From NCBI GenBank assembly GCA_032161105.1, contig JAVHTD010000023.1: DNA of 31,003 nt; one strand, written 5' to 3'. The DNA comes from Candidatus Thermosaccharophagus tengchongensis (GTDB lineage Bacteria > Armatimonadota > Fervidibacteria > Fervidibacterales > Thermosaccharophagaceae). This document shows positions 231-30,800 of the stretch, one piece after another. The position numbers and the translations under genes were made by a program. The notes under the pieces were generated by a model. The model did no database searches, had not been told where the DNA came from, and was given only the letters and a program-made list of their open reading frames with translations. Each line of letters begins with the position of its first letter. Position 1 is the first letter of the stretch.

Positions 231-3200
231 ATGCCCATCAGCTTTGCAACGACGCTACATTCATTGCAACATTTCAATTTGGAGCCATCCATGCCGAGTC
301 AAGCGAGTGAGTGCAAGATGCAGCGTGCCAATGAAACTGCTGCTGACGCCTTTATGACTTCAGAAGTTAAGGAGCTATCTTGTCGGCTCAAATTGCCCGA
401 CACCTCATGCCGCCCGTTGCTCGCATTGAGCCATAAGTGCGTCACGGAGTTGGATGAGGGCAAGCTAAAGCGGCTTTTCAAAGAGCCCGAGTGGGGTGGC
501 GTTATCATACGCTGTTATGAAACAGAACGGCTGCACGAACACCTGAAACCGGCACTTGAGATTGCCCGAAGGAGCGCTGGCGACATTTCGGTGTTTGCTT
601 GCGTGCGCATTGAGGCAATAGCTAATGCGCTCGGCGAGTGCTTTTGGGAACACGAAAGTTTGAGGATGTCAGCTCATGATGGTTGGAAGAAGCTGCTACC
701 GCAGGGTGGATATGCATTTTCCCTATCGGTAGCCAGCCCATCGCATTGCATCACTCTGTGCACGCCGAACGCCCAATTGGATGAGCGCCTTTCACTCCCG
801 ACGGGCGAATACGAATTCCACATATGGCGCAAGCGCTGTGCAGATTCCGAAAGGCGATTTGCTCCAGATGCATTTGAGCGCAAAGAGCAGTTGATGTCGT
901 TCCTTGCGCCATTAAAACGGTTGGCAGATGGTTTGGTCGTTGATTGTTCAACCTTGGTCATGTCACGCCGCTTCGGCAGAGGGCGTATCTTCGTAAGGCG
1001 AATGCTTGAAAGCGTCTTTGAGGAATCGCTTAGCCAAGCGGCGGTTGAATGCGGTGCGTCTGAAGCTGCTATCCTGCGCTCGGTTTGCTACGACCCGTCA
1101 CTTGATGCCGACAGAATGCGCCTCAGCTTCTGGAGGTGGGTGGCGCAGGCTTATCGCAGGTTGTTCATCCTGCCAATGATGGATGCGCTCAATGAACTCA
1201 ACATGCGCTTTGCCATTGACTGCAGCGGTTGGCGCAACACGCTTTCTCCATTCCTCGCCTTCGGTGACATCGGGCAGGCGCTGAGGTATGAGCCGGTCAT
1301 CACATCTCATGACATGCTGCCGATGTTCATTGTGAGCTGCAACAGCATCACTCTGCGCCTCCTGAGGGCGCTGCTCGGCGGGGGTTGGATTGTGGCAGCC
1401 CAAACATCACCAGAAGAGGGCGATGAATTGAAGGCGGCTTTCACCGCTGCCAAGCATGGTGCAAGTGCATTTGTGAGCGATGTGTTTTTCAGTTCGGCGC
1501 TGCCGGAGTGGCTGCTGGCATCAACTTGCGCGAGCGCGCATTGGTGGTTTGCATCGCGCAGGGCAATTAACATGGACATTGCAAGGATGCTCTGCATTAG
1601 CAAGGTTGGGTTTGAGCATTCTCCCGCAGCTGTCGTCATTTCGGTGCGCCACATGCTATCAAAGCTCTGCATGACGAGGGTGCGCGACGAAGCCGCAAAC
1701 ATGATTTCGGCTTGGTCCGAACTGCTTGACCTGCTTGAGCGCTTCCACTTGAGCTGCAATTGGATCACTGATGATGATTTAGCGAGCGCAACCATCGTTG
1801 AGCGGTTGCCGCTACAGGTTGCGTTAGTTTCGGTTGAGCGCTCCGGATTGCGAGTCGGGAATGAGTATCACACGACTGTGCTGCTCCCGACGCCGAGCGG
1901 GCTTTCAAAGGCTGCATGGATGGTGCTCTCACAACTGCACGAAGCCGGCGGGAGCATTTTCTTGGTCGGGGCACCACCACCGTCATCTGAGGTCATTCCG
2001 GAGACGGGCTTGCTCAAGTGGGTGCAGTCGTGCTCACGAAGCTATGAGGCGAGGTTTATCTACGCAAGCGAACTTGACATGCCGCTTGATGACCTGAGCC
2101 CTGTGACATACCAAAGCGCAACCGGCGGTTGCCTCGGCATGTTTGACTGGCGCATTTGTCCCGATAGAACGGAAGGGGCGTTAATGCTGCATCGCATGCT
2201 CACGCTGTCCATCCGCCCGATGGCTGAGACACATCACCCGTGCATAAAACTCATGCTCAGATGGCTCATGGAAACGCCCATCGTGCTCGCATTGAATGAT
2301 TCGGATGAGTTAGCCGAGTTTCATGTCCGCATCAGGTGTGTTGGGAGAGCGGCAATTTGGCTCGCTGGGCAGGGCGGATATCCGGAGCGGTATTTGCACT
2401 ACGCCATCGTTGAGGACGAGACCGATGCCTGCGGTGCAATGTGCACGCTCATCCCTCTCAAGCTCCCGCCGGGGCAGTGGTGCGTCCTTTCAATACCGCC
2501 TGGTGTTGAAACGCACATCGGCGCTTCAAACTTCCATGTCACCGATGTGAGCGTCACCGATGAGATGGCTCACATCAAGGGCTACGCGAGGAGACCCAAC
2601 CTGCAAGCCACAATTTGCGTTGGGAGAAAGGCGCTTGAGTTTGACGCACATGCAGAATGCGTCCCGGAGGATGAGGCAAAGCTTGACGGTGTCGTTAGGG
2701 TCACCGGAGGGCGATTTGAAGCCGTATGCGTTGGTGAATTGAGCTTCACTTCGTGGAGGGCATCATTTCGTTTCCCATGGTCGTTGATTCACCGTCGCAC
2801 ATCGTGGCACACCATGTCCGGTGCGGAACGCTCAATGCGCATGGAGCATGGGGAGCGCTTCAGTGAGGTGCAACTTCGCTTGGATGTCGTGCGCCCTCCA
2901 TATTGTAAGGGGTTGAGGTTGAAACTCCAAAGCATGCCGGAGGAGTGGCTTGCCATCGCAATTGACGGGAAAATGGTCGCAGCGAATGCCGATGCGGATT
3001 TGAGACGCCTGAAGCGCCTGAGGCTTATTGAGCCGGAAAGCGGGTGCAAATTCATCAGCGGATGCGATACCGATTGGTTGAGCATTGAATGGCAATCCGA
3101 TAGGCATGAGCTCGTCCTGTGGACGACCATTCCCGAGGGTGGAGAAGTTAAGCTTCCGCATGTCTATGTGCTGCTTGAATTGAACTGCGAAGATCCCTCG

Positions 3201-3566
3201 CTGTTTGATGGCGCGATGCTTGTGCTCAACTCAATGAGCAATTGCAGGCGTTTGCATTTGATGCGCTGCTGTGAATGCCTTTTGAGCATCTTGCCGCCTC
3301 CGGATGTGAGCGAGTTGTTGTTGATGTTTGATTCACTGTGGGACAGCTCAACCTTGATCGGGAGCATTGGTGATGAGGTGATTGCTTCATCGCTGCGCCA
3401 CTTGCGCATTAAGCTCACATGTGATGGTGAAAGGTTATTGAGGGTGCAGGTTGGCGAGTTTTTGGCTGGCAAGCCGGATGAGGGAGCTAAGGCTCAGCTA
3501 ACGCCTTTGAGGTGGCGCGTTGCCTTCGGCGTCAACGCCGTGGCGAAAGTGAGGGTTGTGCAATGA
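231..3566 (+). CDS. Large hypothetical protein, distantly GH106/alpha-L-rhamnosidase-like multidomain architecture, possibly non-catalytic; true start may be somewhat downstream
   Basis: 1111-aa ORF coupled to the next gene by an ATGA overlap. RLSFWRWVAQAYRRLFILP resembles the GH106 barrel segment, and VLLPTPSGLSKAAWMVLSQLHEAGGSIFLVGAPP resembles the GATase-like middle domain. C-terminus is beta-rich. The CDS is confident; the family call is weak. Confidence 0.6.
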   Translation: MPISFATTLHSLQHFNLEPSMPSQASECKMQRANETAADAFMTSEVKELSCRLKLPDTSCRPLLALSHKCVTELDEGKLKRLFKEPEWGGVIIRCYETERLHEHLKPALEIARRSAGDISVFACVRIEAIANALGECFWEHESLRMSAHDGWKKLLPQGGYAFSLSVASPSHCITLCTPNAQLDERLSLPTGEYEFHIWRKRCADSERRFAPDAFERKEQLMSFLAPLKRLADGLVVDCSTLVMSRRFGRGRIFVRRMLESVFEESLSQAAVECGASEAAILRSVCYDPSLDADRMRLSFWRWVAQAYRRLFILPMMDALNELNMRFAIDCSGWRNTLSPFLAFGDIGQALRYEPVITSHDMLPMFIVSCNSITLRLLRALLGGGWIVAAQTSPEEGDELKAAFTAAKHGASAFVSDVFFSSALPEWLLASTCASAHWWFASRRAINMDIARMLCISKVGFEHSPAAVVISVRHMLSKLCMTRVRDEAANMISAWSELLDLLERFHLSCNWITDDDLASATIVERLPLQVALVSVERSGLRVGNEYHTTVLLPTPSGLSKAAWMVLSQLHEAGGSIFLVGAPPPSSEVIPETGLLKWVQSCSRSYEARFIYASELDMPLDDLSPVTYQSATGGCLGMFDWRICPDRTEGALMLHRMLTLSIRPMAETHHPCIKLMLRWLMETPIVLALNDSDELAEFHVRIRCVGRAAIWLAGQGGYPERYLHYAIVEDETDACGAMCTLIPLKLPPGQWCVLSIPPGVETHIGASNFHVTDVSVTDEMAHIKGYARRPNLQATICVGRKALEFDAHAECVPEDEAKLDGVVRVTGGRFEAVCVGELSFTSWRASFRFPWSLIHRRTSWHTMSGAERSMRMEHGERFSEVQLRLDVVRPPYCKGLRLKLQSMPEEWLAIAIDGKMVAANADADLRRLKRLRLIEPESGCKFISGCDTDWLSIEWQSDRHELVLWTTIPEGGEVKLPHVYVLLELNCEDPSLFDGAMLVLNSMSNCRRLHLMRCCECLLSILPPPDVSELLLMFDSLWDSSTLIGSIGDEVIASSLRHLRIKLTCDGERLLRVQVGEFLAGKPDEGAKAQLTPLRWRVAFGVNAVAKVRVVQ

Positions 3567-4822: not shown

Positions 4823-5518
4823 TCACCTTAGAGCGACCGAAACGGCGAGCACCGACAATGCAAAGCATGCCAGAATTAACCATTCAACCGGCTTGGGGCG
4901 CTCTGCGCTTAAAGACCTGAATTCGCCGTTGAAGCCGCGCGAGAGCATTGCCGTGAAGATTCTGTCAGCGCGCTCATGTGCGCGCAACAAGAGCGCTCCA
5001 ACGAGCATGCCGACATATCTTGCATCCTTCAAGGATAGCCTTCTTGGGCAGCGGCTTAAAAACGCCTGTTGCATGCGCCTTGCCTCCTCACCGAGCACAT
5101 AGGTATAGCGGTAAAGCAGCGCGAGCATCGTTACCATAAGGCTTGGCGTGCGCAGCATCCTCAACGCGCTCAGCAGCTCGGTGAATGGCGTCGTTAACGA
5201 GAGCCAAGTGGCAGCTGCAACGCAAAGTGTTGATTTGACGACAACTTGAATGAACCTCTCAACAGCCCCTCCGATGAGCAACCCGAGTGCGCACAGGATG
5301 ATAAACGGGACGATGGTAAGCAGCCTCTTAGCGAGAGCGCTTACTCTTACACCGCTGAGGGGAAGCAAAACCGCAATCAGAGCGCCAAGCGCAACCCATG
5401 CGGCGTATCCGCTTGCGGAAGATGCGAGCACGGCAACGATGTATGATAACGCCATCAGCAGTTTGATCTCGGCGTGAAGCCGTATCATGGGCTCTGCTGA
5501 AACACCGTTCACTGGCAT
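4823..5518 (-). CDS. ECF transporter transmembrane T component (EcfT, CbiQ/NikQ-like)
   Basis: Hydrophobic N-terminus; TTPFTELLSALRMLRTP, LLYRY...EEARRMQQAFLSR and RAHERADRIFTAMLSRGFNG (the two conserved xRx motifs). Confidence 0.92.
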   Translation of the reverse strand: MPVNGVSAEPMIRLHAEIKLLMALSYIVAVLASSASGYAAWVALGALIAVLLPLSGVRVSALAKRLLTIVPFIILCALGLLIGGAVERFIQVVVKSTLCVAAATWLSLTTPFTELLSALRMLRTPSLMVTMLALLYRYTYVLGEEARRMQQAFLSRCPRRLSLKDARYVGMLVGALLLRAHERADRIFTAMLSRGFNGEFRSLSAERPKPVEWLILACFALSVLAVSVALR

Positions 5519-5928
5519 CCCTCCCGAAGGAGTTGAAACAATTTCTCACCGCACGAGATTACCTTTCTCGCGGCGCCCTCGTCACCGAGCTCCTTTAACC
5601 ACTCCCGCATCTTGCCGATGGCATCCTCTCCGACAAGCATGCGCAGCTTCTCATTTGTATCGGTGTTCACGAAGTCAACGGCGATCTCGTCGGACGGAAC
5701 GAGCTCAATGTTCCCCTTCCCGTAGGTTGCGCCGGTTGAGATTTGAAGGCCGTCCACCATGCATGATTGCGGAGGCTTCGGTGGGCAGTGTATGGTGACT
5801 CGCACGCCGAAATATTTCCTCGCATTCAGAAGTTCCAATGCGTAACGCCCCATAAGCATGCCCAGAGCGAGGAATGGACCTAAGTGACCGTGAAATGATC
5901 TTGCAAACTCAAGCTCATTTTCGCTCAT
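5509..5928 (-). CDS. FmdE (formylmethanofuran dehydrogenase subunit E-like) family metal-binding protein
   Basis: FHGHLGPFLALG and SCMVDGLQISTGATYGKGNI motifs; AAGGAGG before ATG 5928; overlaps both neighbours. Confidence 0.92.
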   Translation of the reverse strand: MSENELEFARSFHGHLGPFLALGMLMGRYALELLNARKYFGVRVTIHCPPKPPQSCMVDGLQISTGATYGKGNIELVPSDEIAVDFVNTDTNEKLRMLVGEDAIGKMREWLKELGDEGAARKVISCGEKLFQLLREGCQ

Positions 5929-6436
5929 GCCATGCAACCCTCCTTGAATGCTCAATCAGCAGAACGATTGGTGGTGCTGCCACAATCTGCAGTATGATGC
6001 CGGGTGCCCCGGCGGCTATTGAGGCTGTCCCGAATACCCCCGGTGGGAGTTGTAGCAATGGCGCAATTGTGTATGCGAGAACGATGTCACAAAGGCACCG
6101 CGCAATGATGGCGCCTATAACGCATGCGAGCAAAGGCAAACAAAGCCGATGGCGAAGGAGTGACGCTGATGCACCGAGCGCCGGAAGTTCCACAGCCATG
6201 AGCAGTGCTGTAGGCATGGGCGGCATTCCGGTCAACAGCCACGATGCAAGCGGCGTGATGAAACCGCCACACGCAGCCACAATCGGTGAATGGGTGAGCA
6301 ACCCAAGCACCAGTATGGGAAGGTGCATTGGGAGGAAAAATTTTCCGAGCCCGATGGCGTGAAAAAGCATCGGCAACACAACGCCGACGGCACAAAATAG
6401 CCCACCTGTGACGACTTCCCTCGGCTCCGGACGCAT
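5915..6436 (-). CDS. ECF transporter substrate-binding S component
   Basis: About 173-aa multi-pass membrane protein with LPMLFH, FLPMHLPILV, ITPLAS.LLTGMPP, MAVEL and PGIILQI; GAGGTG RBS before ATG 6436. Confidence 0.88.
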   Translation of the reverse strand: MRPEPREVVTGGLFCAVGVVLPMLFHAIGLGKFFLPMHLPILVLGLLTHSPIVAACGGFITPLASWLLTGMPPMPTALLMAVELPALGASASLLRHRLCLPLLACVIGAIIARCLCDIVLAYTIAPLLQLPPGVFGTASIAAGAPGIILQIVAAPPIVLLIEHSRRVAWHERK

Positions 6437-6461
6437 CCGGATCACCTCTTAGCCTTGCCCT

Positions 6462-6490
6462 GTATCACATCAATTCGGAAATTGTAACAC
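6462..6490 (-). promoter_or_regulatory. Extended -10 promoter overlapped by a NikR-like operator candidate upstream of the ECF operon
   Basis: Plus strand GTATCAC-N15-GTAACAC; the minus strand reads TG-T-TACAAT (extended -10) across the GTAACAC half-site. The spacer is longer than in the 14205 site. Confidence 0.45.
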
Positions 6491-6737
6491 AAACTTTGAG
6501 GTTAACCCGCAGCAACATCGCTTCTGCTATGAGCCAAAGGTTGGCGACTCGGTTGGAACGCCAGTTGAATGCTTTTCGGCGCTAAGAGCTCATCGCCTGC
6601 AGGTCGCGCCATTTGGGCGCGTTTGACATGCAAATCATGCAAAGCACCGATGCGCACTCAGCATCATAATAAGCGTTTGAATTTGCGCTTCGGTGTCAGT
6701 GAGTTGCTATCGGCAAAATTCTGCAGCGGTGTGGTGA

Positions 6738-8348
6738 GTGAAGATGGGCTCAAAATATGGGGCATTTGTGAGCGCATGCACCGTTGCCATTCTCAATGTG
6801 TTGCTCTTCGCCGGCGGAGTGGCATCGGCTAAGGAGACCAAATCACCGGCGGTGAAGGAGCTTGAAGCCGGCTTGAGCGCATATCGCTCAAAGGATTACG
6901 ATACAGCCATTGAGAGATTCAAGGAAGCGCTCTCGTCCGATCCGAATTTGCTCTCAGCTCGCTTCTGGCTCGGCATGTGCCATTATCTCAAAGGCGACTT
7001 GAGCACCGCCGAAAGGCAATGGAAGATGGTGCTTTCCAAGAAGCCGAACTCAACCGAAACGAGAAAATGGCTTCAAAGGCTCCGTGCCGAGATGGCAAGG
7101 AAAAAGCTGCTCCCTGAAGGGTATGAGGAGGCTCTAAATGCATACAGGCAGAAGAGATACGAGGATGCTGCAAGACAGCTACAGTTGGTCGTGGATGCTA
7201 ACCCGAAGTTTTTGCCAGCGCTCTTCTGGCTCGGCGTGATGCATTTGCATCTCGGCAACACCGATGAGGCGCTTAAGGCATTCGCCGGCGTCCTCCAAAA
7301 GAAGCGCTCATCCGTTGAGACGATGGTCTGGCTCGGACGCCTTGAAGAAGAACTGGGAAGGTGGGAGGAAGCCCTCGGATGGTATCGTGGCGCATTGAAC
7401 ATCAATCCGAGGCACAAGGAGGCTCAAGAGCAGTATAAGCGTTTGCTCGGCATAGTGCTTGCGAAATATAAATCGGGTTTGAGCGCCCTTGCAAGGAGTG
7501 ACCGTGAGAGGGCACTTGAGGAGTTGAGCGAGATTGCGCCGAAGATGAGGTGGCGGTTTGACATCCAGTTTTGGTATGCGAGGGCGCTCATAGCTAACGG
7601 CAAATACGACGATGCGATAAAGCTGCTTTACAGCGTCCTGCAACACCGTCCCAATTGGACAAGTGCCATCTTCTGGCTTGCCGAAGCGCATCAAGGCATC
7701 GGCGATGTTGATGGGGCGGCATCAGTGCTCGCTATGGCATTGCGCACAAATCCAAACCAACCCGAGTTGAAGCGCAAGCTGATGCAACTCGCAAAGGAGT
7801 ATCCGCAGTCAGTTAAGTTGGAGGTTATAAGGCGGCATTCAAACAGCCCAAGCACGCTTGTGACATTTATTAACAGATGCCCCGATGAACTTGAAGTTCA
7901 ATTTGGCGAACACGAAATAAAGCTGCACAGCGGTGCGCAGCACACGATTGAAGTCTCTCCGGCGCTCTATCGGTATGTGGCAAAGCGGGCAAATGGATTG
8001 GCTGTCAGCGGTTCGTTGCTCATGCTCGGTTGGCATAGCTACACCGTTGAATTTGCTCCATATCCATCATCTGTTGCGCTCCTCAAAGTTCGCACCGATG
8101 TAACCGAATCGCTGAGCTCGCAGAAATTCACAAAGCTCGTGCTCACCAACGCTTCGGCATCTAAAGTCACTGTGAGGGTGGACTCACGCTTCATCACGCT
8201 CAAGCCGAAGAGGAGCACAACGATGCTCATTGAGCCGGGGAGTGTGAGCTACGCGATATGCGTTCACATTTCGGATGCTTTTACGCCGGGGGCAACCGGA
8301 GAAATGACATTGCCTGAGTGGCGCTCGCTGCACCTTACGATCAGGTGA
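6738..8348 (+). CDS. Secreted TPR-repeat protein with two C-terminal beta-sandwich-like domains
   Basis: Signal peptide ending ...GVASA; repeated TPR helices (ARFWLGMCHY, ALFWLGVMHL, MVWLGRL, IFWLAEAH); two similar C-terminal units (LVTFINRCPDELEV..., LVLTNASASKVTV...). Confidence 0.85.
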   Translation: MKMGSKYGAFVSACTVAILNVLLFAGGVASAKETKSPAVKELEAGLSAYRSKDYDTAIERFKEALSSDPNLLSARFWLGMCHYLKGDLSTAERQWKMVLSKKPNSTETRKWLQRLRAEMARKKLLPEGYEEALNAYRQKRYEDAARQLQLVVDANPKFLPALFWLGVMHLHLGNTDEALKAFAGVLQKKRSSVETMVWLGRLEEELGRWEEALGWYRGALNINPRHKEAQEQYKRLLGIVLAKYKSGLSALARSDRERALEELSEIAPKMRWRFDIQFWYARALIANGKYDDAIKLLYSVLQHRPNWTSAIFWLAEAHQGIGDVDGAASVLAMALRTNPNQPELKRKLMQLAKEYPQSVKLEVIRRHSNSPSTLVTFINRCPDELEVQFGEHEIKLHSGAQHTIEVSPALYRYVAKRANGLAVSGSLLMLGWHSYTVEFAPYPSSVALLKVRTDVTESLSSQKFTKLVLTNASASKVTVRVDSRFITLKPKRSTTMLIEPGSVSYAICVHISDAFTPGATGEMTLPEWRSLHLTIR

Positions 8349-11269: not shown

Positions 11270-11291
11270 GGGGCGGCTATCAAGCCGCCCC
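11270..11291. terminator. GC-rich hairpin between convergent gap and prepilin-like gene; possible terminator
   Basis: Perfect 9-bp stem GGGGCGGCT-ATCA-AGCCGCCCC; no classic downstream U-tract on either strand. Confidence 0.5.
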
Positions 11292-11347: not shown

Positions 11348-12022
11348 TCACTTGTATGATGTGTCCCAGAACTTGCGCCAAATGTTTTCCGGCACAACAT
11401 GCACCTCGTTCTCTCCGGGCGGCGGGAGCGGATTGCCGTTTCCGTCCTCCTTCCATGTCGTGCTGTGAAATTGCTCTGGCTTCATCCATTTGACATGTCC
11501 GTCACCGAATAGAATGTTTGAGCCGTCATTGTGTATTCGGCAGACAGACCAAAAGCATGTTGAGCCACCATGGTATGCCCCAGTGGGTCCGTTAGGCGGT
11601 CCGGAGTTGCATCTATCCCACTCAACCGTGAGGATCTTATCAGCAGGGTTGGCAATCTGTGCCTCATGCCTTTCGGGAAAGCCGGGAGTGCCATCACAGC
11701 CGCTTATGCTTGATGGACATCCAAGATTGTATCCATGCCCATAATACCAAGGCAACTCTGGTCGGCTCGGGCATTTCCAAAGATCGCGGTTTTTCATGTA
11801 TGGGTCAAGGCGCGATTTCCACTGCGGGAACGGCGGGTAAACACCATCGTAGTCTGCCAGATACATCTGGAAGGCTAATCCATGTTGGCGCATGTTGCTT
11901 ATGCATGCACTTGCCCTCGCCTTCTCACGGGCACGGGCGAACACTGGGAACAGGATCGCCGCCAAGATGGCGATTATCGCTATAACGACCAAAAGCTCAA
12001 TCAGCGTGAATCCGCGGCGCAT
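11348..12022 (-). CDS. Prepilin-type N-terminal cleavage/methylation protein with C-terminal H-X9-DG motif (DUF1559-like)
   Basis: [36 protein letters not shown]...CISN; CPS motif; [29 protein letters not shown] before ATG 12022. Confidence 0.95.
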
Positions 12023-12023
12023 T

Positions 12024-13274
12024 TCAATGCACCTCCTTGCTTCCATCATCGGTCACAAAGAAAGTCAAGGTTGTTCTGGCATTGCCCTGTTGGCAAGCAA
12101 CCAACCAAACACCGGTTCGGTCAAGTTTGAGGTTCGCCAGACCGAAATCGGTCGTCATCAGTTTGATGGGAAATTCTTCGTTCTCTCCGGCAGGCTTTGC
12201 TTCGGGGTAAGTGGCGTAGATAATGGCGGGTGTGGGAAACCCCTCTGACATCACAAGAACAGGGGCAATTGAACCAATTTTCCGCCTTGCAGAACTGTCA
12301 AGCATCAGTAAGGAAAGCGATGGCGGTCGTCTCAAAGGGGTCATTGAAGGTTCCTCGACATCCACGAGCGCTAAACCCACCATCTGGAAGCCTTGGGCTT
12401 GATCTTGTTTCTCATCACCGAACAGCCTTCTGCTACCCACCACTGCATCAATGCCGAAGGAGAATGGCTTTATGTCAATGACTGGTGTTCCATCAAATGC
12501 ATCCAACCCTTTGACGAAGAGTGTGTTCCCTTTCCGCTCAAGCAATTCAACTATGCAAATACCGATCGGATTGGGTCGGCTGGGTGACCTCGTGGCAAAT
12601 ACGCCGAAGATCTCATCGCCCCAGGGAGTCCTTGATGCGAGGACATCGCGGCGTGCCCTGTCCAACCAATAAAGCACAATTAAGTGAGATGCATGCTCAA
12701 TTCCCCTGAGCGCCTCGGCAAACTCGTCTCGGATTTTAATTTGACAGATTTCATGCGAGTAGCGACCTTGATGAGGTGGTCGCTTGCCTTCGGGACTGTA
12801 GGGGGACGAAATGGCACCGATCGGGTAAACGGAGAAGCCCTCACCCTCCTTCACGGTGAGCGGTTTGATGAGCTGTTTCCACTCCTCCTGTTCCGCTCGC
12901 TTTTGGGGTGTTTCCTGCGGTTGTTGTGCTTGGCGGCGCCGCGCATAAAGCCAAGCATGGATGATATATGTTCCCTTTTGCTCTGCCACAAACTTACCCA
13001 CCCACTCCTTCGTCGCTTCGTCGGGGCTTAGCTCCACAGTAAAGGTTTGACCATTGGGCTTAACGATCTCCACAAACTGTTGAGCTGAAACCAGGATGTC
13101 GCTCTTTGGGAATTCATCACCGTGACCGAGTCCAATGCGGAAAGTGACGGTCTCGCCAACCTTTGGTTTGTAGTTATCAACCACCACCCAAAGGAAGTGC
13201 GAGCTGGCAAGATCAAAGCAAACAGCTGTTAAGGCTACACTGAGCAACATTTTGGTTGCGCTTTTCAGTTGCAT
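12024..13274 (-). CDS. Secreted DUF4198-like protein with an internal TsaA/TrmO-like SAM-binding domain
   Basis: Signal peptide ...[11 protein letters not shown]4198-like N-part ([27 protein letters not shown]); TsaA motifs at about 12447-12836 ([50 protein letters not shown]); DUF4198-like C-part ([19 protein letters not shown]...TTLTF). GAGGAGGTG RBS before ATG 13274. Confidence 0.85.
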
Positions 13275-13296
13275 CTCTTGATGCACCTCCTCTTGC

Positions 13297-13983
13297 TTAT
13301 TGGGGGTCATACCACCAGATCTCTGGTGGTTGCGCCGAGCAGATTTTGTCCTTACGCAGCGCCTTCACATGACCATCAATGAAGAGCGCACTCGCGCATT
13401 CAAAATGCCTGTCAGCCACATCTCCATCACAACTTGAGCGCCTCACAACATGTCCTGGGGAATCGCAAACCCACATGACTTCAGCGGGTCGGTCAATCCT
13501 GGCAAGAGGCGGTGGCGGGACAAGATCTGCATTGCCATTGGGAGCAATGACAAATCCGGAAACATTTCCATTGATGCCGTAAGAGACATAAGAGATTGCT
13601 TGTCCCATCATCATGCGTGACACTTCTTTTTGGCTCGGACACCAGAAGAGGTCTTCGTATTGGAAGACCGTCGTTCCAGACGGATCTGTTGTCCGCGTAT
13701 ATGTTCGGCTTGCGAGGTAAGGCTTAATCAATTCCTGCCAGCCGTAAGCACCGATTCGCCAAGCGCCTCGCTGAACATCCGGATACGACCAAGGCACAAG
13801 GCGTTCATCGTAGTCTTGGGAATACATTTGCAATGCCATTCCGATCTGCTTAAGGTTTGACGCGCATCGCGTTTTTCTCGCCGATTCTCGTGCCCTTGAT
13901 AGCACCGGAAGCAGCATCGCCGCCAAGATGGCGATTATCGCTATCACGACCAGAAGCTCAATCAGAGTGAATCCTCTCCTCAT
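13297..13983 (-). CDS. Prepilin-type N-terminal cleavage/methylation protein with C-terminal H-X9-DG motif (DUF1559-like)
   Basis: [36 protein letters not shown]...[44 protein letters not shown]. The frame stays open upstream to ATG 14187. Confidence 0.95.
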
Positions 13984-14204
13984 CTCAACACACCCCCTTC
14001 TGCATGCGCTCATCACCGACAATTCAACCGTTCGTTGTCCGGGGGCTCTTTTGAGCCGTGCGGCGCACAGATTTGCGTGTGGAGTTGTTGGGGCTTCATC
14101 TGGGGTAGGGTGATTCCCTTCCCCGAACAGCCTCACAGAGAGTGCACCATCAGCGCGTCCGCTCAACCATGCCCTCAAGCTCACCATTCAACTCCCCCTC
14201 CTCG

Positions 14205-14231
14205 CTATGACGAAATTAAAATTCGTAACAC
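14205..14231. promoter_or_regulatory. NikR-like operator candidate
   Basis: CTATGAC-GAAATTAAAATTC-GTAACAC (7-13-7, with inner ACGAA/TTCGT symmetry) closely resembles the E. coli nikA operator GTATGAC-N14-GTCATAC and sits just downstream of the predicted -10. Confidence 0.55.
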
Positions 14232-14289
14232 CACATCAGCAGTGTAGCGCGCTCCTCTCGGATGTAAAGTCAGCCTCGGTTTCAAAGCA
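14213..14289. repeat. Imperfect direct repeat, copy A
   Basis: First 29 nt match 19815-19843 at 27/29; shared GCTCC, ATGTAAAG and CAAAGCA blocks follow. Confidence 0.85.
14241..14268 (-). promoter_or_regulatory. Sigma70-type promoter candidate for the prepilin/TsaA-fusion operon
   Basis: Minus strand TTTACA-N16-TACACT. Confidence 0.5.
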
Positions 14290-14949
14290 AACGAATTGAG
14301 CCAGTTTAATTCGGATGCTCAGCGTGCATCCGCACTGGCAAGTTGGCGGGAAATTTCTTGTTAAGATTCCATAAAAGTTATTACCGAAGTCGGTGGGTTC
14401 AAGTCGCTTAAGTGGCGGATAAAGCTGCTCCTGCGGCTGGCATTGTTGCTGTTGCGGTGTTGGCGCGATGATGTTTTGTTTGTGACATGGTTCTGGCTTT
14501 AGGTTGATTGGATAAATCGCTTCGCTCGTTGCTCAGTTGACCATGCAATTCATCTGCTCGGTTCATCCTACCACAACGCGCTTGTTGGCGTGACGGGAAG
14601 GCTACAAACCGTTGGGGCGTTAACTTGAGGGCTTTGTTGAAAGCGGATCACATCGTCTCTCGGGAAAGCCAAACTAAGTTGACTATTGTGAGCTCGCTGA
14701 CTTGTGGTCGGCAGCTTGTCTGGAAAGAAGCGAAACATGCATACGCTGCAATCTATGGTGGCATAGCATTGAGTGATTGAGGAGTTGGAAGGGCGAAGGC
14801 ATTCAACAGGTGATGAATAGCCGAGGGAACACTGCTCATCAAAATTTTGGCTTGAGAGGAGTCAGCCCTACGATGTCGTCGGTTGAAAGCAGATGCTGCA
14901 CTTTTCCCAACTAACAAACTCGCGCTGATCGCAATGCGTCATTCATGCA

Positions 14950-21142: not shown

Positions 21143-21237
21143 CGGGGGCGAATGGGAATCGAACCCACCCAGCGCTGCTCTCACAGCGCCGCACGGGATT
21201 TGAAGTCCCGGAGAGGCACCAGCCCCCAACCGCCCCC
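21143..21237 (-). tRNA. selC: tRNA-Sec (anticodon UCA); CCA not encoded
   Basis: 8-bp acceptor stem GGGGGCGG/TCGCCCCC plus discriminator G; 6-bp D stem with TGGT loop; CGGGA-CTTCAAA-TCCCG anticodon arm; 8-bp variable arm; 5-bp T stem with TTCGATT. This is the canonical bacterial 8/5 fold. Confidence 0.97.
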
Positions 21238-25901: not shown

Positions 25902-26015
25902 GGAAAGTGGGATTGGCATAATGGTTGGCGGCGTTCATGTCAGGTTGCCCCGGCTTTGAGAGTTGATAGGTTGCGGAAATTGGGAGTCACTCCGAATTCA
26001 CCCGAGGTGATGGCT

Positions 26016-27857
26016 ATGAAGCAGACAGCCCTTGCGCTCATAGCTGTTTTTGCCATGACTTTGAGCAATTCCGCCGCGCAATATGGTAGACCAAAGAAGA
26101 AACTCATTCAATACGGGTGGGGTGTTCCTTATACGGACTTTGTTCGGGAAAATGCGAATGAAATGGAGAAGAATTGCCCATTCTTTGATGGGATCGTTAT
26201 AAGGCTGAGAGGTGGATGGAAGGCATATCCAGCCCATATTTTCCGAAAATCAGCCGCGACTTTGGAAGAATATGGGGCTGATATGGCAAACCTAAAAGCG
26301 ACAAAATTTGAAAGATTTAGGGAAAATTTCGCCCTCGCATGGGGGACGGCTGAAAAGGGATGGGATTGGTTTGATGAGAACGATTGGCGTGCTGCCGAGC
26401 AAAATGCCAGGTTAATTGCGCATGTGGCAAAAGTTGGCGGTTTAATCGGAATATGCTTTGATCCGGAGCCATATGGTGAAAATCCATGGCATTACCCAAG
26501 TTTGCCAAACGCGAAAACTAAATCATTTTCTGACTACTATGCCAGAGTTCGTGAATGCGGGGCAAACTTTATGAGAGTCATCCAAGATGAGTTCCCAAAT
26601 TTGCGCATTTTGACCTTCTTTTGGGGGAGCATTTTGGGTGATTTGGTTGATGTAGAAGACCAAAAAGAAGTCATGACTCGTCTTTCAAAGCATGGCTATG
26701 GGCTGCTCCCGGCATTCTTAAACGGGATGTTGGATGCGGTAAGCGGAAAAACCATCATAATTGACGGTAATGAGCCGGCATATTACTACCGCTCGCCGGA
26801 GCAATATTTTCGTGCATATCATTTGATGCGCCAGAGGGCATTGTCAATCATATCGCCAGAAAATAGGGAAAAATACGCAATTCATGTTCAAGCCGGATTT
26901 GCCCTCTACATGGACTTTTATTTTGGGCTCGTCCCTTTTGAAGTGAAATGGGGCAGATTGAGCCATTACTTAACACCGCAGGAAAGAGCAAAGTGGTTTG
27001 AGCATAATGTCTATTGGGCACTTTATACAACGGATGAATATGTTTGGTGTTACAGTGAGAGGCTTGACTGGTGGGGGACACAGGAAAAGGCAAAATGGTT
27101 CAAATTTGTCCCAGAAGGTGCCCCTGAAGCGATCCGGTCAGCTCGCAGGAAGCTTGACGAGTCAAAACCACTTGGTTTTGATATTCGTGATATGCTGCAA
27201 GCAGCTGAACAAAAAATGAGAGAAAAGCAAGCTAAATCATTGATACGGCGTGAGGCGAGGGTTCAAAAGCTGCAGCCGGGCGAAGAACCGCCAAAAATTG
27301 ATGGAAGGATAGACGACATTATCTGGCAGAACTTAAAGCCGTTGGAGGAATTTGTCATGAATTTGGAGAGCGCAAAAACCAAACCGTCGGTCAAAACAGT
27401 AGCTTGGCTGACCTACGATGACCGTTACCTTTATGTCGCTTTCCAGTGTGAGGAATTATTCCCAGAAAAGATGAAAATAGTCGGAGAAAAGCTGGATGAT
27501 GAGATTTGGCTCGGTGATTGTGTGGAGTTGCTGATCAGCTTGGGAGACTCGCCAAAACCTTATCGCCATTTCATAGTGAACCCCAGAAATGTCAAATGGG
27601 ATGGTGCATCTGTTGATGGAGGTGATGACCCGTCATGGAATGCAGATTGGAAAAGCGCCACATTTATTGGGAAAAACGCATGGACATGCGAAATGGCAAT
27701 ACCTTGGGAGTCAGTCGGGAAAATGCCTAAAGTCGGGGAAAAGAGGCGAGTAAACCTATGTAGGCAGAGATGTGTTGACGGAGTTGAGTGGACTACTTGG
27801 TCGCAAGTCATTGACGGGTTTCTTGAGGCAGAAAACTTCGGAGTTATTTGGTTTTAA
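26016..27857 (+). CDS. Secreted putative glycoside hydrolase-like barrel protein with C-terminal CBM9-like sugar-binding domain
   Basis: Signal peptide from ATG 26016 (GAGGTG RBS); GICFDPEPY (DxE) and IIDGNE in the N-domain; CBM9-like PKIDGRIDD..W, YDDRYLYVAF, DCVELLI and WTCEMAIPW. Confidence 0.8.
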   Translation: MKQTALALIAVFAMTLSNSAAQYGRPKKKLIQYGWGVPYTDFVRENANEMEKNCPFFDGIVIRLRGGWKAYPAHIFRKSAATLEEYGADMANLKATKFERFRENFALAWGTAEKGWDWFDENDWRAAEQNARLIAHVAKVGGLIGICFDPEPYGENPWHYPSLPNAKTKSFSDYYARVRECGANFMRVIQDEFPNLRILTFFWGSILGDLVDVEDQKEVMTRLSKHGYGLLPAFLNGMLDAVSGKTIIIDGNEPAYYYRSPEQYFRAYHLMRQRALSIISPENREKYAIHVQAGFALYMDFYFGLVPFEVKWGRLSHYLTPQERAKWFEHNVYWALYTTDEYVWCYSERLDWWGTQEKAKWFKFVPEGAPEAIRSARRKLDESKPLGFDIRDMLQAAEQKMREKQAKSLIRREARVQKLQPGEEPPKIDGRIDDIIWQNLKPLEEFVMNLESAKTKPSVKTVAWLTYDDRYLYVAFQCEELFPEKMKIVGEKLDDEIWLGDCVELLISLGDSPKPYRHFIVNPRNVKWDGASVDGGDDPSWNADWKSATFIGKNAWTCEMAIPWESVGKMPKVGEKRRVNLCRQRCVDGVEWTTWSQVIDGFLEAENFGVIWF

Positions 27858-27882
27858 ACGCCAAAGTCGGGGGTGAAAAATT

Positions 27883-30800
27883 ATGAGATTTTGTGGGATA
27901 ATTTTGCCAATATTTGCGGCGCTACCCTTGGCTTTGCCACTCCAATCCAAACGAATTATCACAAATAACAAATTGATTTTGGAAAACAAAATGGCAAAAA
28001 TTTTGATTGATGAATCATTGAAAGTTGTGTCAATCATTGATAAAAAGCATCGGAAAGAGATTTGCGCCGATGCGAAGCCATTTATGGCGTTAAAGGCGGG
28101 AGGAAGGGAATTTCTCCCACTTTCATGGGTATTTTCTGGAAAAGGCGGCGAGTTGGGTGTTGAATTTGAAAAAGCGAGGATAAAGGTGAAGATTGAGGCA
28201 AAGGACCAGTATTTTGTCATAAAAATTTCCGATTTTGTCGGGGACGCCGATGAAATAACATTCGCCAACTTATCCGTAAAATCTTCAAAATATGTGAGCC
28301 ACATGGTTGGAATGGCAGCAGATGATGAATTCGGCATCTGCGTTCGTGCGCTGAACTTGCAAACGAATGTTGTCGTGAGGGGAAAGCCAGCCATAATCTC
28401 GGCAAATTGTTCCAAAAAATATGGGTTTGTTGGTGCCGGCATCGTATTGGTTGCAGCGCCAACGCAGCAAATCAGGGATGTGTTGAAGAAAGTTGTGAAA
28501 AATGAGGGCTTAATTCACTCGCAGCTTGGGGGTCCTTTTGCGCTTGATGCTAAGGAGAACAAGCTTTCGTATATATTCGCAACTGTCGGTGAACAAAATG
28601 TAGATGATTGGATTGCAATTGCTAAAATGTCTGGCATTGGTATCATTCATCTTATTGGTTGGGAGAGGTCTTTGGGGCATTATGAGCCAAGAAAAGACCT
28701 GTTTCCCAATGGTATGCTGGGGCTGAAAAAAGTTGTGGAAAAAATTCACAAAGCTGGCTTAAAAGCTGGATTGCATACGCTGACTGGCTGCATATCCCCT
28801 CATGACCCATATGTGACGCCTATCCCCGACAAAAGATTGGCAAAAAGGAGAACATTTACTCTTGCGAAAGAAATCAGCGAGAAAGACGATGTGATTTATG
28901 TTGAGGAACGACCGGAGGATATGGACACAATCTGGGCATATGCGAGTAAAGGAAATGTATTGCAAATTGGAGATGAACTTGTGCAATATTCCGGATATTC
29001 TCAGGAAATGCCTCATAGATTTTGGGGGTGCAAAAGAGGCGCTTTCGGGACGAAACCTTCACCACATCCATCCGGATCAAAAGTGCACTATCTTTATGCA
29101 TACTATGGCACTTTTTATCCAGAAGAGGATTCGGATCTTGTTGACGAAATTGCCCAAAGAATTGCCGATGTGGTGAATGAGTGTGAATTTGACATGATTT
29201 ATCAAGACGGTGCCGAAGGTATGCCCGGTGGATGGTATGGAATATCAAAAATGCGGAGAGAAATTGTCAAAAGATTCAAAAGACCGGTTAGGGTTGAAGC
29301 CAGTGAATGGGGCTATCATTCTTGGACATTTCATTCATGCATCGGAGCGTGGGATCACCCGTGTTGGGGCTTAAAACGCTTTGTGGATATACATTGCCAA
29401 GATTTGGAAAAATACGAGAAATTTCATCTTTTGCCAGGGCAACTTGGATGGTGGGTGATTCTTGGTCCGACCGAAAATTACGATGCAGAAACACCCGACG
29501 AAATGGAGTATCTTTGTTGTAAAGCCTTGGGCTACAATGTGCCCATCTCATTGCAAGGTGTAAGTGTGAGCAATCGTCCTTGGAATCTTCGTCAAGACGA
29601 ATACCTGATAATGTTAGGGCGCTATGAGAGGCTCCGCCTCGCCAATTACTTTTCGGAGGATGTGAAGGCTAAGTTAAGGGAATTTGGCAAAGAATTTAGG
29701 CTTGTTCAGGCTGAGGATGGTATGTGGGAGTTCTTGCCCACAAAGTATGTCACTCAAAAAGTCACAGATATGGCGGAAAGTGCCAAATTAGTCATAAATA
29801 ACCCATTTGATAAGCAATATGCCAAGTTTAGAATACAAGCACTCTACTCTGCAGCGCCGTATGATGCCCCCGAAAGCGTTGTGTTGACAGATTTCTCAGA
29901 AAATAGCGGATTTAAGGTAACTGGCACTGCAGAGGGGGTAACCTGTGAATTTAAGCCAATTCCGGAGCAATCAAAATTTGGCGGAGTATGTGGCTATATT
30001 TCCGCAAAAAATATTGGTGCCCCTCAAAATGGGGCATGGGTAAGAATAACAAGGGCATTTCTTCCACCGATTGACATGCGCAAATATGGAGCACTCGGAG
30101 TGTGGATTTATGGCGATGGTAAAGGGGAAGTGATCAATTTTCAACTTAGAGATATGCCACAATATTATCATGGCACTTATGATGACCATTATGTTGATGT
30201 GAATTTTGTTGGTTGGAAGTATTTTGAGCTGCTTTTGCGGGAAAGAGACGCAGAAAGGCATGTTGATTTTGTCTGGCCATACTTTGGAATTTATCAGATT
30301 TATCGTTCGCCGTTGGTTAAGCATGCGATTAACGAGTTAAACATTTATGTTAATAATGTGCCCCCAAACAGCTCCATAACTTGTTATATTTCTCCAATAA
30401 AGCTATTGCCAGTGAGAAAACTCAAATTTTCCGGTCCGAGTGTGTCAATTAATGGGGCGAAAATAGAGTTTCCAGCAATGATTGAAAGCGGGCAATACAT
30501 TGAGTTTGAATCAATGTCAAATTGCAGGCATTACAGAGAAAATGGGGAATTGATTGGTTACATCACGCCGCACGGCACGCTCCCCATGCTAAATCATGGC
30601 GAAAATATGGCTATTTTTTCCTGTAAGCCCGAAGGGAATGGGAAAGTGAGAGCAAAAATAACCTTCATTTGCACAAGTAAGCCAATAAGAGGTATGTCTT
30701 CAAAAAGAAACATCAATTGGGAAATATTGCGCATGGAGTATGACGATCCACGCATTATTTGCGCCTTGGATGGCAAGCAAAATGAATGGGATTTAATCTG

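Follow-up and report, generated by a model that had tools for sequence, protein, structure and literature searches.

A DUF4198 protein with an inserted TrmO_N barrel and two pilin-like neighbours: a candidate metal-homeostasis cassette in Fervidibacter-type Armatimonadota

Introduction

A small gene cassette confined to hot-spring Armatimonadota of the Fervidibacter type encodes a DUF4198 protein, split by an inserted TrmO_N β-barrel, together with dedicated pilin-like proteins of the DUF1559 family behind a conserved 27-bp inverted repeat. Judged from the sequences, the best explanation, which we adopt tentatively, is that of a lineage-specific metal-homeostasis cassette, most likely nickel-responsive, whose DUF4198 protein would bind the metal and whose pilins would serve as its partners in the envelope. 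The explanation starts from what is observed: gene order, domain composition, the insertion, residue conservation, the shared distribution of the components and the conservation of the repeat.

Pilin-like proteins of the DUF1559/H-X9-DG family number from dozens to about 100 per genome in Planctomycetes and Armatimonadota, and the sparse literature available to us contains no tested function for the family. The cassette links two dedicated members to a partner family of known biochemistry and to a candidate metal-responsive operator, and thus offers a small, conserved case with a concrete hypothesis that can be tested on purified proteins. Metal binding by DUF4198 proteins is already known; the present protein departs from the known members in its TrmO_N insertion and its pilin-like gene neighbours. 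The predicted placement of a barrel with an AdoMet-type pocket outside the cytoplasm also raises the question of what this TrmO_N clade binds.

Organization of the operon

The window, the whole stretch of 31,003 nucleotides that was analysed, contains three minus-strand open reading frames at 13297..14187, 12024..13310 and 11348..12049, which hold closely spaced genes in the order pilin A, DUF4198 protein, pilin B. The genes and the features at their borders are as follows.

13297..13983, minus strand: pilin A, a prepilin-type DUF1559 protein with an H-X9-DG motif, 228 aa (Pfam and NCBIfam matches)
12024-13274, minus strand: middle gene, a DUF4198 protein with a signal peptide (DUF4198 45.7 bits, TrmO_N 112.5 bits)
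11348..12022, minus strand: pilin B, a prepilin-type DUF1559/H-X9-DG protein, 224 aa, rich in Cys and His (Pfam and TIGR04294 matches)
13984..14204, minus strand: leader, about 220 nt, untranslated or coding for an N-terminal extension (frame open from ATG 14187)
11270..11291, no strand assigned: GC-rich hairpin separating the end of the operon from the convergent gap gene (9-bp stem, -21.3 kcal/mol, z -3.38)

A sequence-only reading of this DNA had described a tight three-gene operon with gaps of 22 and 1 nt, and both the reading frames and the junction sequences bear this out. The 22-nt gap between pilin A and the middle gene, which starts with MQLKS at 13274, contains GAGGAGGTG; AAGGAGGTG lies within the 3' end of the middle gene, ahead of the 1-nt gap and of the pilin B start (MRRGF) at 12022; and AAGGGGGTG is found upstream of the likely pilin A start. 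This start is likely to be 13983, in agreement with the orthologues at four of the five related loci (L001, L002, L004 and L005), with 14187 as the alternative since the frame is open that far. The leader is poorly conserved relative to L003 and absent from the other four loci, where 8-35 nt separate the end of the repeat from the pilin start. Rfam yielded no match in the leader or the operon, the sole hit being a miRNA at chance level (E 0.21), which leaves a riboswitch in the 220-nt leader unsupported. The hairpin beyond the operon lacks a T-run and was for that reason not listed by the terminator scan. No assembly genes are found near the operon within the 31-kb window.

Distribution and conservation of the cassette

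No more than 17 protein clusters and 5 species-representative genomes were found to have the architecture of DUF4198 with TrmO_N, and all of them belong to the Fervidibacter-type Armatimonadota. Pilin A precedes the middle gene at all five loci and a pilin B-type gene follows it at four, the 1-nt gap after the middle-gene stop being retained in L002 and L003. The unit sits in flanking contexts of three kinds (TPR-SIMPL, PurF-AKR and another in L005). Since a GH76 gene with a prepilin N-terminus lies inside the cassette in L001 and pilin B is missing in L005, the cassette is neither fixed nor purely metal-themed.

DUF1559 genes are abundant enough that the neighbourhood might have arisen by chance, with flanking pilins functionally unrelated to the middle gene. 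In favour of this, the tables of the cultivated relative F. sacchari give about 50 term matches for DUF1559 and about 40 for prepilin-type proteins, and pilin-type genes have been gained at L001 and L003 and lost at L005. We nevertheless consider coincidence very improbable. The five pilin A orthologues are 80-90% identical, which exceeds the conservation of the middle protein, and they form a distinct group (6 clusters at 79-100% identity and one at 53%, all others being at or below 43%) confined to the same lineage as the fusion protein; the gaps of 22-45 nt and 1 nt contain ribosome-binding sites; and the unit has moved among the three contexts along with its operator. A tblastn search of pilin A against plasmids gave no match at E 1e-8. 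F. sacchari may itself lack the cassette, as no row of its PD1 tables names TrmO, UPF0066 or DUF4198.

The middle protein

The sequence-only reading had described the middle gene as a DUF4198::TsaA fusion. Both domains are indeed present, but they are not joined end to end: TrmO_N is inserted within DUF4198, so that the protein is composed of the following segments.

13200..13274, minus strand: Sec-type signal peptide, ending ASS before His26 (hydrophobic N-terminus, AxA/ASS followed by H)
12939..13199, minus strand: DUF4198 N-terminal half, residues 26-112, with motifs HFLW and GLGHGDEFP (PF10670 positions 1-101)
12441..12833, minus strand: inserted TrmO_N (UPF0066) β-barrel, residues 148-278 (Pfam PF01980 112.5 bits, TIGR00104 144 bits)
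12051..12392, minus strand: DUF4198 C-terminal half, residues 295-408 (PF10670 positions 140-206, 6/6 members)

The cut-off for DUF4198 is 34 bits, and the N-terminal half reaches 45.7. In six of six members the DUF4198 profile also matches the C-terminal 126 aa (best E 2.2e-8; E 0.0033 for the window copy alone), which align with the C-termini of stand-alone DUF4198 proteins. A signal peptide, its cleavage site read by eye, is followed by an N-terminal histidine in all 15 aligned members, in which H26, H51 and E54, as well as the GLGH motif, are invariant. A word-based search with residues 22-135 brought up nothing beyond 10 family members, and stand-alone DUF4198 proteins made up only about 10 of the 62 hits of an exhaustive profile search, the nearest ten having the same signal peptide, AH.LW and GH.FP motifs and the same histidine layout. 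The Protein Atlas places clusters of plain DUF4198 nearest, at 0.76, which we take as no more than a lead, and none of its large clusters has the fused architecture.

A profile search of the PDB with the DUF4198 halves identified no solved structure by sequence, the N-terminal half giving chance-level hits only. Structure was compared through an AlphaFold2 model built from a 44-row composite alignment (mean pLDDT 80.5); a model from the 15-row family alignment, with a mean pLDDT of 47.3, was discarded. The N-terminal half is mostly predicted at pLDDT above 90, and the barrel is flanked by low-confidence linkers at residues 115-141 and 277-293. Foldseek matches to chains of Zcp from Neisseria gonorrhoeae, the top DUF4198 structural match, cover both halves (E 2.6e-11 to 9e-10, target TM 0.64-0.70), while 9GCB, the Ideonella entry, is absent among the listed matches.

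That the middle protein is a putative metal binder, as had been proposed, agrees with published experiments on the DUF4198 family, whose members act as periplasmic binders of Zn, Ni, Co and Cu (PMC12663993, PMC12537917). Zcp (PDB 9MHI-9MHO) has submicromolar affinity for Zn and also coordinates Co, Ni and Cu; it is Zur-regulated, dispensable for uptake and acts as a buffer (PMC12663993), so that the presence of DUF4198 does not imply import. IsDUF4198 from Ideonella sakaiensis (PDB 9GCB) binds Ni with a Kd of 18 nM through its N-terminal His and His18, and the gene neighbourhoods described for it include NikR_C regulators (PMC12537917).

The inserted barrel resembles chain 2nv4_A both by sequence (E 1.9e-37) and by fold (Foldseek TM 0.87, rmsd 1.9 Å, 52% identity). 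Q169, R229, D258 and K269 are the counterparts of the AdoMet ligands of AF0241, and all four are invariant. TrmO_N is also the best conserved segment of the protein, with 79% identity to the distant clade, compared with 63% and 52% for the two DUF4198 halves. Its closest relatives outside the family are FmdE::TrmO_N fusions, which account for 31 of the 33 best non-family hits at 50-60% identity; the FmdE core domain binds Zn/Ni, and the FmdE::UPF0066 architecture has been noted before (PMC2954224). Since these fusions dominate the best non-family hits, the TrmO_N clade recurs beside metal-binding domains.

This conservation of the barrel and of its amino/carboxyl ligands, and the prevalence of the FmdE fusions, would also be expected if the pocket were the working part of the protein, an exported receptor, scaffolded by DUF4198, for a small molecule that resembles AdoMet or an amino acid (AdoMet, SAH, an amino acid or a metallophore). 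The metal motifs of DUF4198 are, however, equally invariant, and to our knowledge no exported AdoMet-binding protein of the TrmO_N fold has been described; we regard a receptor of this kind as unlikely.

Two family members are named TrmO by NCBI, and were the name correct the protein would be a cytoplasmic tRNA m6t6A methyltransferase, in keeping with a TIGR00104 score over the cut-off and with the intact AdoMet ligands. Such a role is scarcely credible, and the public name is likely a misannotation: the domain is embedded in DUF4198 behind a predicted signal peptide, Pfam reports only TrmO_N from TrmO, and the DPRxxY motif was not seen in the translation by eye. Absence of the TrmO C-terminal tRNA-binding domain makes a tRNA substrate implausible. 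TrmO activity needs the DPRxxY motif, and the barrel falls within the short archaeal-type branch, where m6t6A has not been found (PMC4132733).

The pilin-like proteins

Both pilins carry the prepilin motif G|FTLIELL with Glu at +5 and match PF07963 and TIGR02532. Pilin A scores 34.2 bits for N_methyl and 43.7 bits for DUF1559, and pilin B 34.8 and 30.3 bits, so that the Pfam hits, like those of the middle protein, exceed their cut-offs (23.3 bits for DUF1559, PF07596). The H-X9-DG model TIGR04294 matches pilin B at 28 bits and was not reported for pilin A, where the motif is visible in the sequence. Pilin B orthologues, present at four of the five loci, are 70-88% identical.

The distal pilin had been singled out as Cys/His-rich, and the strings quoted for it were located in the pilin B translation, which has 7 Cys and several His. 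From this had come the proposal that the DUF1559 pilins, pilin B in particular, are Ni/Co-capturing subunits of a pilus-like fibre that replaces a TonB-dependent receptor or a solute-binding protein. Some observations are compatible with it: YGHG, DRC and VCRIH are retained in the pilin B orthologues; in the H-X9-DG region, H, D and H do not vary; one F. sacchari supplementary table, searched by term, contained no ExbD or TonB-receptor annotation; and the archaeal bindosome establishes that binding proteins with pilin signals exist (PMC3047682). The proposal is not supported by the alignments. GCPSSISGC, which stands out most among the Cys/His strings of pilin B, is missing from three of four orthologues, and this lack of conservation makes the idea weak; the STC cysteine is replaced by Gly in L003. 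The conserved residues, on the other hand, are common property: C40, C84, H164, D174, G175 and H176 are kept across all 44-45 aligned DUF1559 proteins, from many contexts, and are on this alignment family-wide rather than operon-specific. L005 dispenses with pilin B altogether, the cysteines of an exported protein in an aerobe would more likely be disulfide-bonded, and the operon already holds a bona fide member of a metal-binding family. Metal capture by the pilins themselves thus seems to us improbable. A complex prediction with custom alignments, for residues 30-228 of pilin A, 30-224 of pilin B and 26-416 of the middle protein in its mature form, gave 0.00 in two runs without controls and speaks neither for nor against a contact.

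The promoter and the inverted repeat

Two features precede the leader.

14241..14268, minus strand: promoter-like site TTTACA-N16-TACACT (9/12 consensus positions)
14205..14231, minus strand: 27-bp inverted repeat, candidate repressor operator (gene strand reads GTGTTACGAATTTTAATTTCGTCATAG)

With the pilin A start at 13983, the promoter-like site lies 258 nt upstream of it. Such sites are not above chance by themselves (5 found in the scan, 3.6 expected), and L003 keeps the same -35 element and spacing, with TATACT as its -10, amid an otherwise poorly conserved region. The palindrome ACGAA-N7-TTCGT occurs exactly once in the window (14210-14226), with 0.87 occurrences expected at up to one mismatch, and alone is likewise not significant. 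The earlier description of a NikR-like palindrome behind a promoter holds with corrections: palindrome and promoter taken singly are at chance level, but the palindrome is the core of a longer, 27-bp repeat. This repeat precedes the operon both in the window and at all five related loci, in flanking DNA only about 45% identical.

The repeat has the layout 7-N13-7, and its half-site GTGTTAC is identical in the window to that of the NikR signal predicted for the delta-proteobacteria, GTGTTAC-[N13/14]-GTAACAC (PMC545781), a computational prediction from a distant phylum. The window repeat agrees with this signal at 11 of 14 positions and the orthologous repeats of L001-L005 at 12, 12, 12, 12 and 13. 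A single site at 11/14 is common by chance (4.74 per shuffled window); at 12/14 or better, shuffling yields 0.42 sites per 31 kb and no other site exists anywhere in L001-L005. The match to the E. coli-type (enterobacterial) NikR box is just 7-9/14. The most conserved bases are those of the inner core, CGAATTTTAATTTCG, which lies outside the NikR consensus, and the outer half-sites vary among loci. As RNA, the window repeat forms a weak hairpin (-6.7 kcal/mol, z -1.45) and that of L002 a strong one (-15.7 kcal/mol); a DNA operator is favoured over an RNA hairpin. On the strength of the half-sites the repeat is possibly a NikR operator. No NikR gene was found in the window or among the scanned reading frames of the related loci; F. 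sacchari encodes NikR (WP_259097846.1) together with the Ni-pincer proteins LarA/B/C, Hyp proteins and CbiM/CbiQ.

These comparisons bear on whether the DUF4198 protein might instead, like Zcp, buffer zinc or another metal in the periplasm, under a regulator other than NikR, and so supply envelope metalloproteins without importing nickel. The best characterised DUF4198 protein and top structural match is just such a Zur-regulated zinc binder, dispensable for uptake, and the conserved inner core falls outside the NikR consensus. Nickel is nonetheless preferred, in that the repeat, compared by eye, is unlike the Zur, Fur and PerR boxes of PMC545781, the half-sites fit the predicted NikR signal at 11-13/14, and the N-terminal His with a second His is the layout of the nickel-binding IsDUF4198. 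We rate the zinc buffer as rather unlikely, though it deserves more weight than the other alternatives.

A proposed mechanism

In the preferred reading, that of a nickel-responsive homeostasis cassette, we infer beyond these observations the export of the middle protein, the identity of the metal and of the repressor, the contact with the pilins and the direction of metal flow. A repressor, possibly NikR, would sit on the 27-bp repeat at the promoter. Upon derepression, the DUF4198 protein would be exported and its signal peptide cut right before the invariant histidine, which would then become the N-terminal residue and, probably together with the invariant His of GLGH, chelate the metal as in the nickel-binding Ideonella protein. 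The TrmO_N barrel, with its AdoMet-type pocket intact, would occupy a loop of DUF4198 on flexible linkers and most likely bind a small amino-acid-like ligand, provide dimerisation, or both, without methylating tRNA. The two dedicated DUF1559 pseudopilins would be processed by prepilin peptidase and, rather than acting as metal ligands, may anchor, present or shuttle the binding protein by means of the type IV filament machinery; F. sacchari expresses its pilus ATPases and prepilin-type genes at very high levels.

A bolder version, which we think unlikely, is that the cassette encodes a nickelophore receptor coupled to type IV filaments, with Ni gripped by the N-terminal His brace of DUF4198 on one side and by a chelator in the TrmO_N pocket on the other, and with the pseudopilins as the bacterial counterpart of the bindosome. 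The chelator would then resemble an amino acid or derive from AdoMet, as do compounds of the histidine or nicotianamine/opine type, and the pseudopilins would ferry the loaded protein through a wide periplasm, a term search of one F. sacchari table having turned up no TonB system. If this is generalised, the members of the huge DUF1559 family would be pilin-anchored adaptors, each working for an exported binding protein encoded next to it.

Comparison with known systems

As in Zcp and IsDUF4198, both halves of the middle protein match PF10670 and the fold is that of Zcp; with IsDUF4198 it further shares the signal peptide, the N-terminal His and a second conserved His of the nickel site, the equivalence of H51 and His18 being putative. 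Unlike these proteins, its domain is split by a 131-residue TrmO_N insert on flexible linkers, its sequence is very divergent, and its gene neighbours are pilin-like genes rather than those for TonB receptors or ABC systems.

The insert itself is like the short archaeal-type TrmO_N/UPF0066 protein AF_0241 (PDB 2NV4, crystallised with AdoMet), the equivalents of Gln22, Arg82, Asp111 and Lys122 being invariant, but it is an internal part of a protein with predicted export. The FmdE::UPF0066 fusions differ in having no visible signal peptide (in the two aligned, P0018 and P0020) and a different metal-binding partner domain.

The NikR-controlled nikKMLQO operons and stand-alone nikK genes of delta-proteobacteria, whose product NikK we take to be a DUF4198 protein, likewise have a 27-28-bp repeat upstream of a gene for a periplasmic component, although the compared sites are predictions from another phylum and the present operon contains no nikMLQO genes.

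Minor-pilin operons may encode a non-pilin tip protein, as with PilY1 in Pseudomonas and ComZ in Thermus, and the cassette resembles them in that a non-pilin exported protein is encoded between pilin-like genes; it differs in that no sequence relationship exists and no assembly genes lie near the operon in the window. In Tuwongella, the neighbours of genes with N_methyl and SBP_bac_10 domains often encode type I or II signal peptides (PMC8567305). A further parallel is the Sulfolobus bindosome, whose sugar-binding proteins have class III (prepilin-type) signal peptides (PMC3047682). There the system is archaeal, the ligands are sugars and the pilin signal is on the binding protein itself, whereas in the cassette a Sec signal is predicted for the binding protein and the pilin signals are on separate neighbours; common to both would be that binding proteins, coupled to type IV filament machinery, capture nutrients at the envelope.

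Operon Organization and Distribution

The genes under study form a head-to-tail array of three ORFs on the minus strand of the window, with the following features in and around it:

14205–14231: 27-bp inverted repeat upstream of the operon
13297–13983, minus strand: pilin A, a DUF1559 / H-X9-DG prepilin-type protein
12024–13274, minus strand: middle protein, a predicted exported DUF4198 protein carrying a TrmO_N barrel
11348–12022, minus strand: pilin B, a second DUF1559 / H-X9-DG prepilin-type protein
11270–11291: GC hairpin (9-bp stem, −21.3 kcal/mol, z −3.38), between the operon 3' end and a convergent glyceraldehyde-3-phosphate dehydrogenase gene

The sequence-only reading described a tight three-gene operon with gaps of 22 and 1 nt, and the junction sequences bear this out. 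The pilin A stop codon (TAA) is followed 22 bases on by the ATG of MQLKS at 13274, which is preceded by GAGGAGGTG; the middle gene stops at TGA, one base before the ATG of pilin B at 12022, and AAGGAGGTG lies within its 3' end, ahead of that ATG. The pilin A frame is open further upstream to an ATG at 14187, the start adopted by gene callers (cluster P0182, containing window pilin A, is 296 aa). The true start is most likely at 13983, the position at which the orthologues in the related loci L001, L002, L004 and L005 begin. A decayed PMT_2-type glycosyltransferase gene explains why 966 nt upstream of the operon are free of ORFs. Only fragments of it persist at 14435–14771 (tblastn 41% identity over 54 aa, E 5e-6; blastn pieces up to 77%); in L001 and L002 the gene survives intact, divergent from the cassette.

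Pfam families PF10670 and PF01980 were found combined in only 17 protein clusters (P0001–P0017), the named ones among them belonging to Armatimonadota or Fervidibacterota, and 31 of the 33 next-best hits were FmdE::TrmO_N fusions aligned over the barrel only. A scan of species-representative genomes yielded five full-length loci (L001–L005), all in Armatimonadota/Fervidibacter-type MAGs, and additionally one short archaeal barrel fragment. What flanks the cassette varies: TPR-SIMPL genes in L001, L002 and the window, PurF-AKR genes in L003 and L004, and others in L005. It therefore travels as a unit.

Elsewhere in the window, a tRNA-Sec gene (21144–21237, minus strand; 75.9 bits in Rfam) is flanked by genes for an aldo/keto reductase-ferredoxin and a PurF-like protein. 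G+C content falls from ~0.52 to 0.41–0.46 over 26001–31003, which holds a CBM9-containing protein and an open-ended 1040-aa ORF without a Pfam match; an 1111-aa ORF at 231–3566 likewise has none.

The Middle Protein

In the middle protein, Pfam finds DUF4198 (profile positions 1–101) and then TrmO_N, and TIGR00104 scores 144 bits on it. Its last 126 residues match DUF4198 profile positions 140–206, a match seen in six of six family members (best E 2.2e-8), and can be aligned to the C-terminal ends of stand-alone DUF4198 proteins. Both domains of the fusion proposed earlier, DUF4198::TsaA, are thus present, but with DUF4198 matched on either side the barrel is inserted inside that domain. A first AF2 model built from 15 rows was unusable (pLDDT 47.3). 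The model from a 44-row composite alignment (mean pLDDT 80.5) comprises three blocks of high confidence and two linkers of low confidence (115–141, 277–293). With this model, Foldseek retrieved the archaeal short TrmO_N protein AF0241 with AdoMet (2nv4_A; TM 0.87, rmsd 1.9 Å, 52% identity), followed by chains of Zcp, the Neisseria gonorrhoeae DUF4198 protein, across both DUF4198 halves (E 2.6e-11, target TM 0.64–0.70).

A hydrophobic N-terminus ending in AxA/ASS immediately before an invariant His was present in all 15 aligned members, as was an invariant GLGH..EFP C-terminal of that His. Ten stand-alone DUF4198 proteins show the same layout; they came from an exhaustive profile search whose 62 hits were otherwise long repetitive proteins. 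Alignment to 2nv4_A places Q169, R229, D258 and K269 at the AdoMet ligands Gln22, Arg82, Asp111 and Lys122 (PMC4132733), and all four are invariant in the family alignment. Identity to the distant clade is 79% for the barrel, 63% for the DUF4198 N half and 52% for the C half. The barrel may have kept a pocket for a small ligand, may serve for dimerisation, or may do both; the Lys that contacts AdoMet in AF0241 is contributed by the second subunit (PMC4132733).

Two family members are named 'tRNA (N6-threonylcarbamoyladenosine(37)-N6)-methyltransferase TrmO' by NCBI. Pfam detected no TrmO C-terminal domain in the middle protein, and its translation, read by eye, contains no DPRxxY, a motif required for TrmO activity (PMC4132733). 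These absences, together with the signal peptide and the DUF4198 frame, indicate that the name is probably a misannotation.

The Pilins

In Pfam, both pilins score above the cut-offs for the prepilin cleavage/methylation motif and for DUF1559; the H-X9-DG model matches pilin B, and in pilin A the motif is visible in the sequence. Pilin A lies directly upstream of the middle gene in all five loci (80–90% identical). Four of them also have an orthologue of pilin B downstream of that gene (70–88% identity); L005 has none. The pilin A orthologue group comprises six clusters at 79–100% identity and one at 53%, followed by generic DUF1559 proteins at 43% or less.

The proposal that the pilins, among them the Cys/His-rich pilin B, are themselves metal-capture subunits is not supported by comparison. 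Three of four pilin B orthologues lack GCPSSISGC, and another Cys is also not conserved. The H-X9-DG region's invariant H, D and H occur in every one of the 44–45 DUF1559 proteins aligned. Because the Cys string is not conserved and the H/D/H set is generic to DUF1559, the pilins would be better read as envelope partners dedicated to an exported protein that captures metal, and for a metal-binding role the middle protein appears a far better fit than either.

In L001, a GH76 glycoside hydrolase gene with a prepilin-type N-terminal motif (5391–6650) stands directly 3' of the DUF4198::TrmO_N gene, ahead of the pilin B-like gene; in the Fervidibacter-type lineage, enzymes too seem to carry the prepilin signal.

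The Upstream Element

A promoter-like site matches the consensus at 9 of 12 positions; sites of this kind are no more numerous in the window than expected by chance. Upstream alignment altered this picture: the window and L003 have in common TTTACA-N16-TAYACT and, 13 nt on, GGTGTTACGAATTTTAATTTCGTCA, after which ~200 nt are poorly conserved between the two. In L001, L002 and L005 the repeat lies 33–35 nt before the pilin A start and, read by eye, abuts a TGnTACAAT-like (extended −10) sequence. In L003 an extra DUF1559 gene (6371–7276) separates pilin A from the conserved promoter and repeat, and it has a 64-codon open extension before the pilin motif; window pilin A likewise has a long open extension there, and in both the extension begins 17 nt past the repeat.

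The NikR signal predicted for delta-proteobacteria is GTGTTAC-[N13/14]-GTAACAC, also occurring with half-sites reversed, one site preceding a stand-alone nikK (PMC545781). In every sequence the best match to it was at the operon promoter (11/14 in the window, 12/14 in L001–L004, 13/14 in L005; homologous and hence not independent sites), and no other site of at least 12/14 was found within the five loci. Shuffled windows gave 0.42 sites of at least 12/14 per 31 kb and 4.74 of at least 11/14. The enterobacterial NikR box matched the repeat at only 7–9/14. The inner core of the repeat is fixed across loci and the outer half-sites drift. The short NikR-like palindrome seen earlier, not significant alone, is the core of this conserved repeat. 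Given the homology of the six sites, the drifting half-sites and a reference that is itself a prediction from delta-proteobacteria, we regard the repeat as a conserved candidate operator whose layout resembles that of NikR sites, not as a NikR site.

The window also holds another apparent operon (4823–6488, minus strand):

5915–6445, minus strand: ECF S-component-like membrane protein (PF12822, E 1.3e-6, below cut-off)
5509–5955, minus strand: stand-alone FmdE
4823–5518, minus strand: CbiQ

An imperfect repeat beginning GTGTTAC (6462–6488) lies 17 nt upstream and matches the NikR signal at 11/14, a score reached by ~4.7 sites per window by chance.

Comparison with Known Systems

In the cultivated relative F. 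sacchari, term searches of the available supplementary tables (PMC11535203, supplementary file 3) recovered NikR, two Ni-dependent lactate racemases, LarB/LarC, Hyp proteins and CbiM/CbiQ adjoining an FmdE protein. The near-consecutive accessions of FmdE, CbiM and CbiQ (WP_259095287, WP_259095288, WP_259095292) suggest a common locus. The same tables gave ~50 DUF1559 and ~40 prepilin-type term matches, and a GspE/PulE ATPase, PilT and a prepilin-type protein occupy rows 6, 7 and 9, where baseMean is very high. Within the searched tables there was no ExbD, 'TonB' occurred only in eggNOG phrases on unrelated proteins, and no row named TrmO, UPF0066 or DUF4198. The main text describes a diderm envelope whose periplasm measures 55 nm (PMC11535203). 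In Tuwongella, genes combining N_methyl and SBP_bac_10 are reported, often flanked by type I/II signal-peptide genes (PMC8567305).

The DUF4198 papers describe two characterised proteins. Zcp is periplasmic, homodimeric, Zur-regulated and dispensable for uptake; each of its subunits binds a single Zn, with an affinity in the submicromolar range, and it also coordinates Co, Ni and Cu (PMC12663993). IsDUF4198 of Ideonella sakaiensis binds Ni via its N-terminal His and His18 (Kd 18 nM), and TonB receptors and NikR_C regulators are reported as DUF4198 gene neighbours (PMC12537917). Zn/Ni are bound by the core domain of FmdE, for which a combined FmdE+UPF0066 architecture is on record (PMC2954224).

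The loop past the AdoMet-binding Gln (residues 172–175; window 12749–12760) reads RYSHE(I/V)CQ in all middle-protein family members, with His174, Glu175 and Cys177 invariant, whereas AF0241 has RFSDAVSE and an FmdE-fused relative (P0018) SFSKEICE. The loop is possibly an added ligand site beside the pocket, which we offer as a lead only.

Judged from the search listing, none of the DUF4198 literature found concerned the Fervidibacter-type lineage or TrmO fusions, and the Protein Atlas returned plain DUF4198 clusters only. Each component of the cassette is from a known family; as far as our searches reach, it is the combination of an exported DUF4198 protein with an inserted barrel, two dedicated DUF1559 pilins and a NikR-like repeat that is new.
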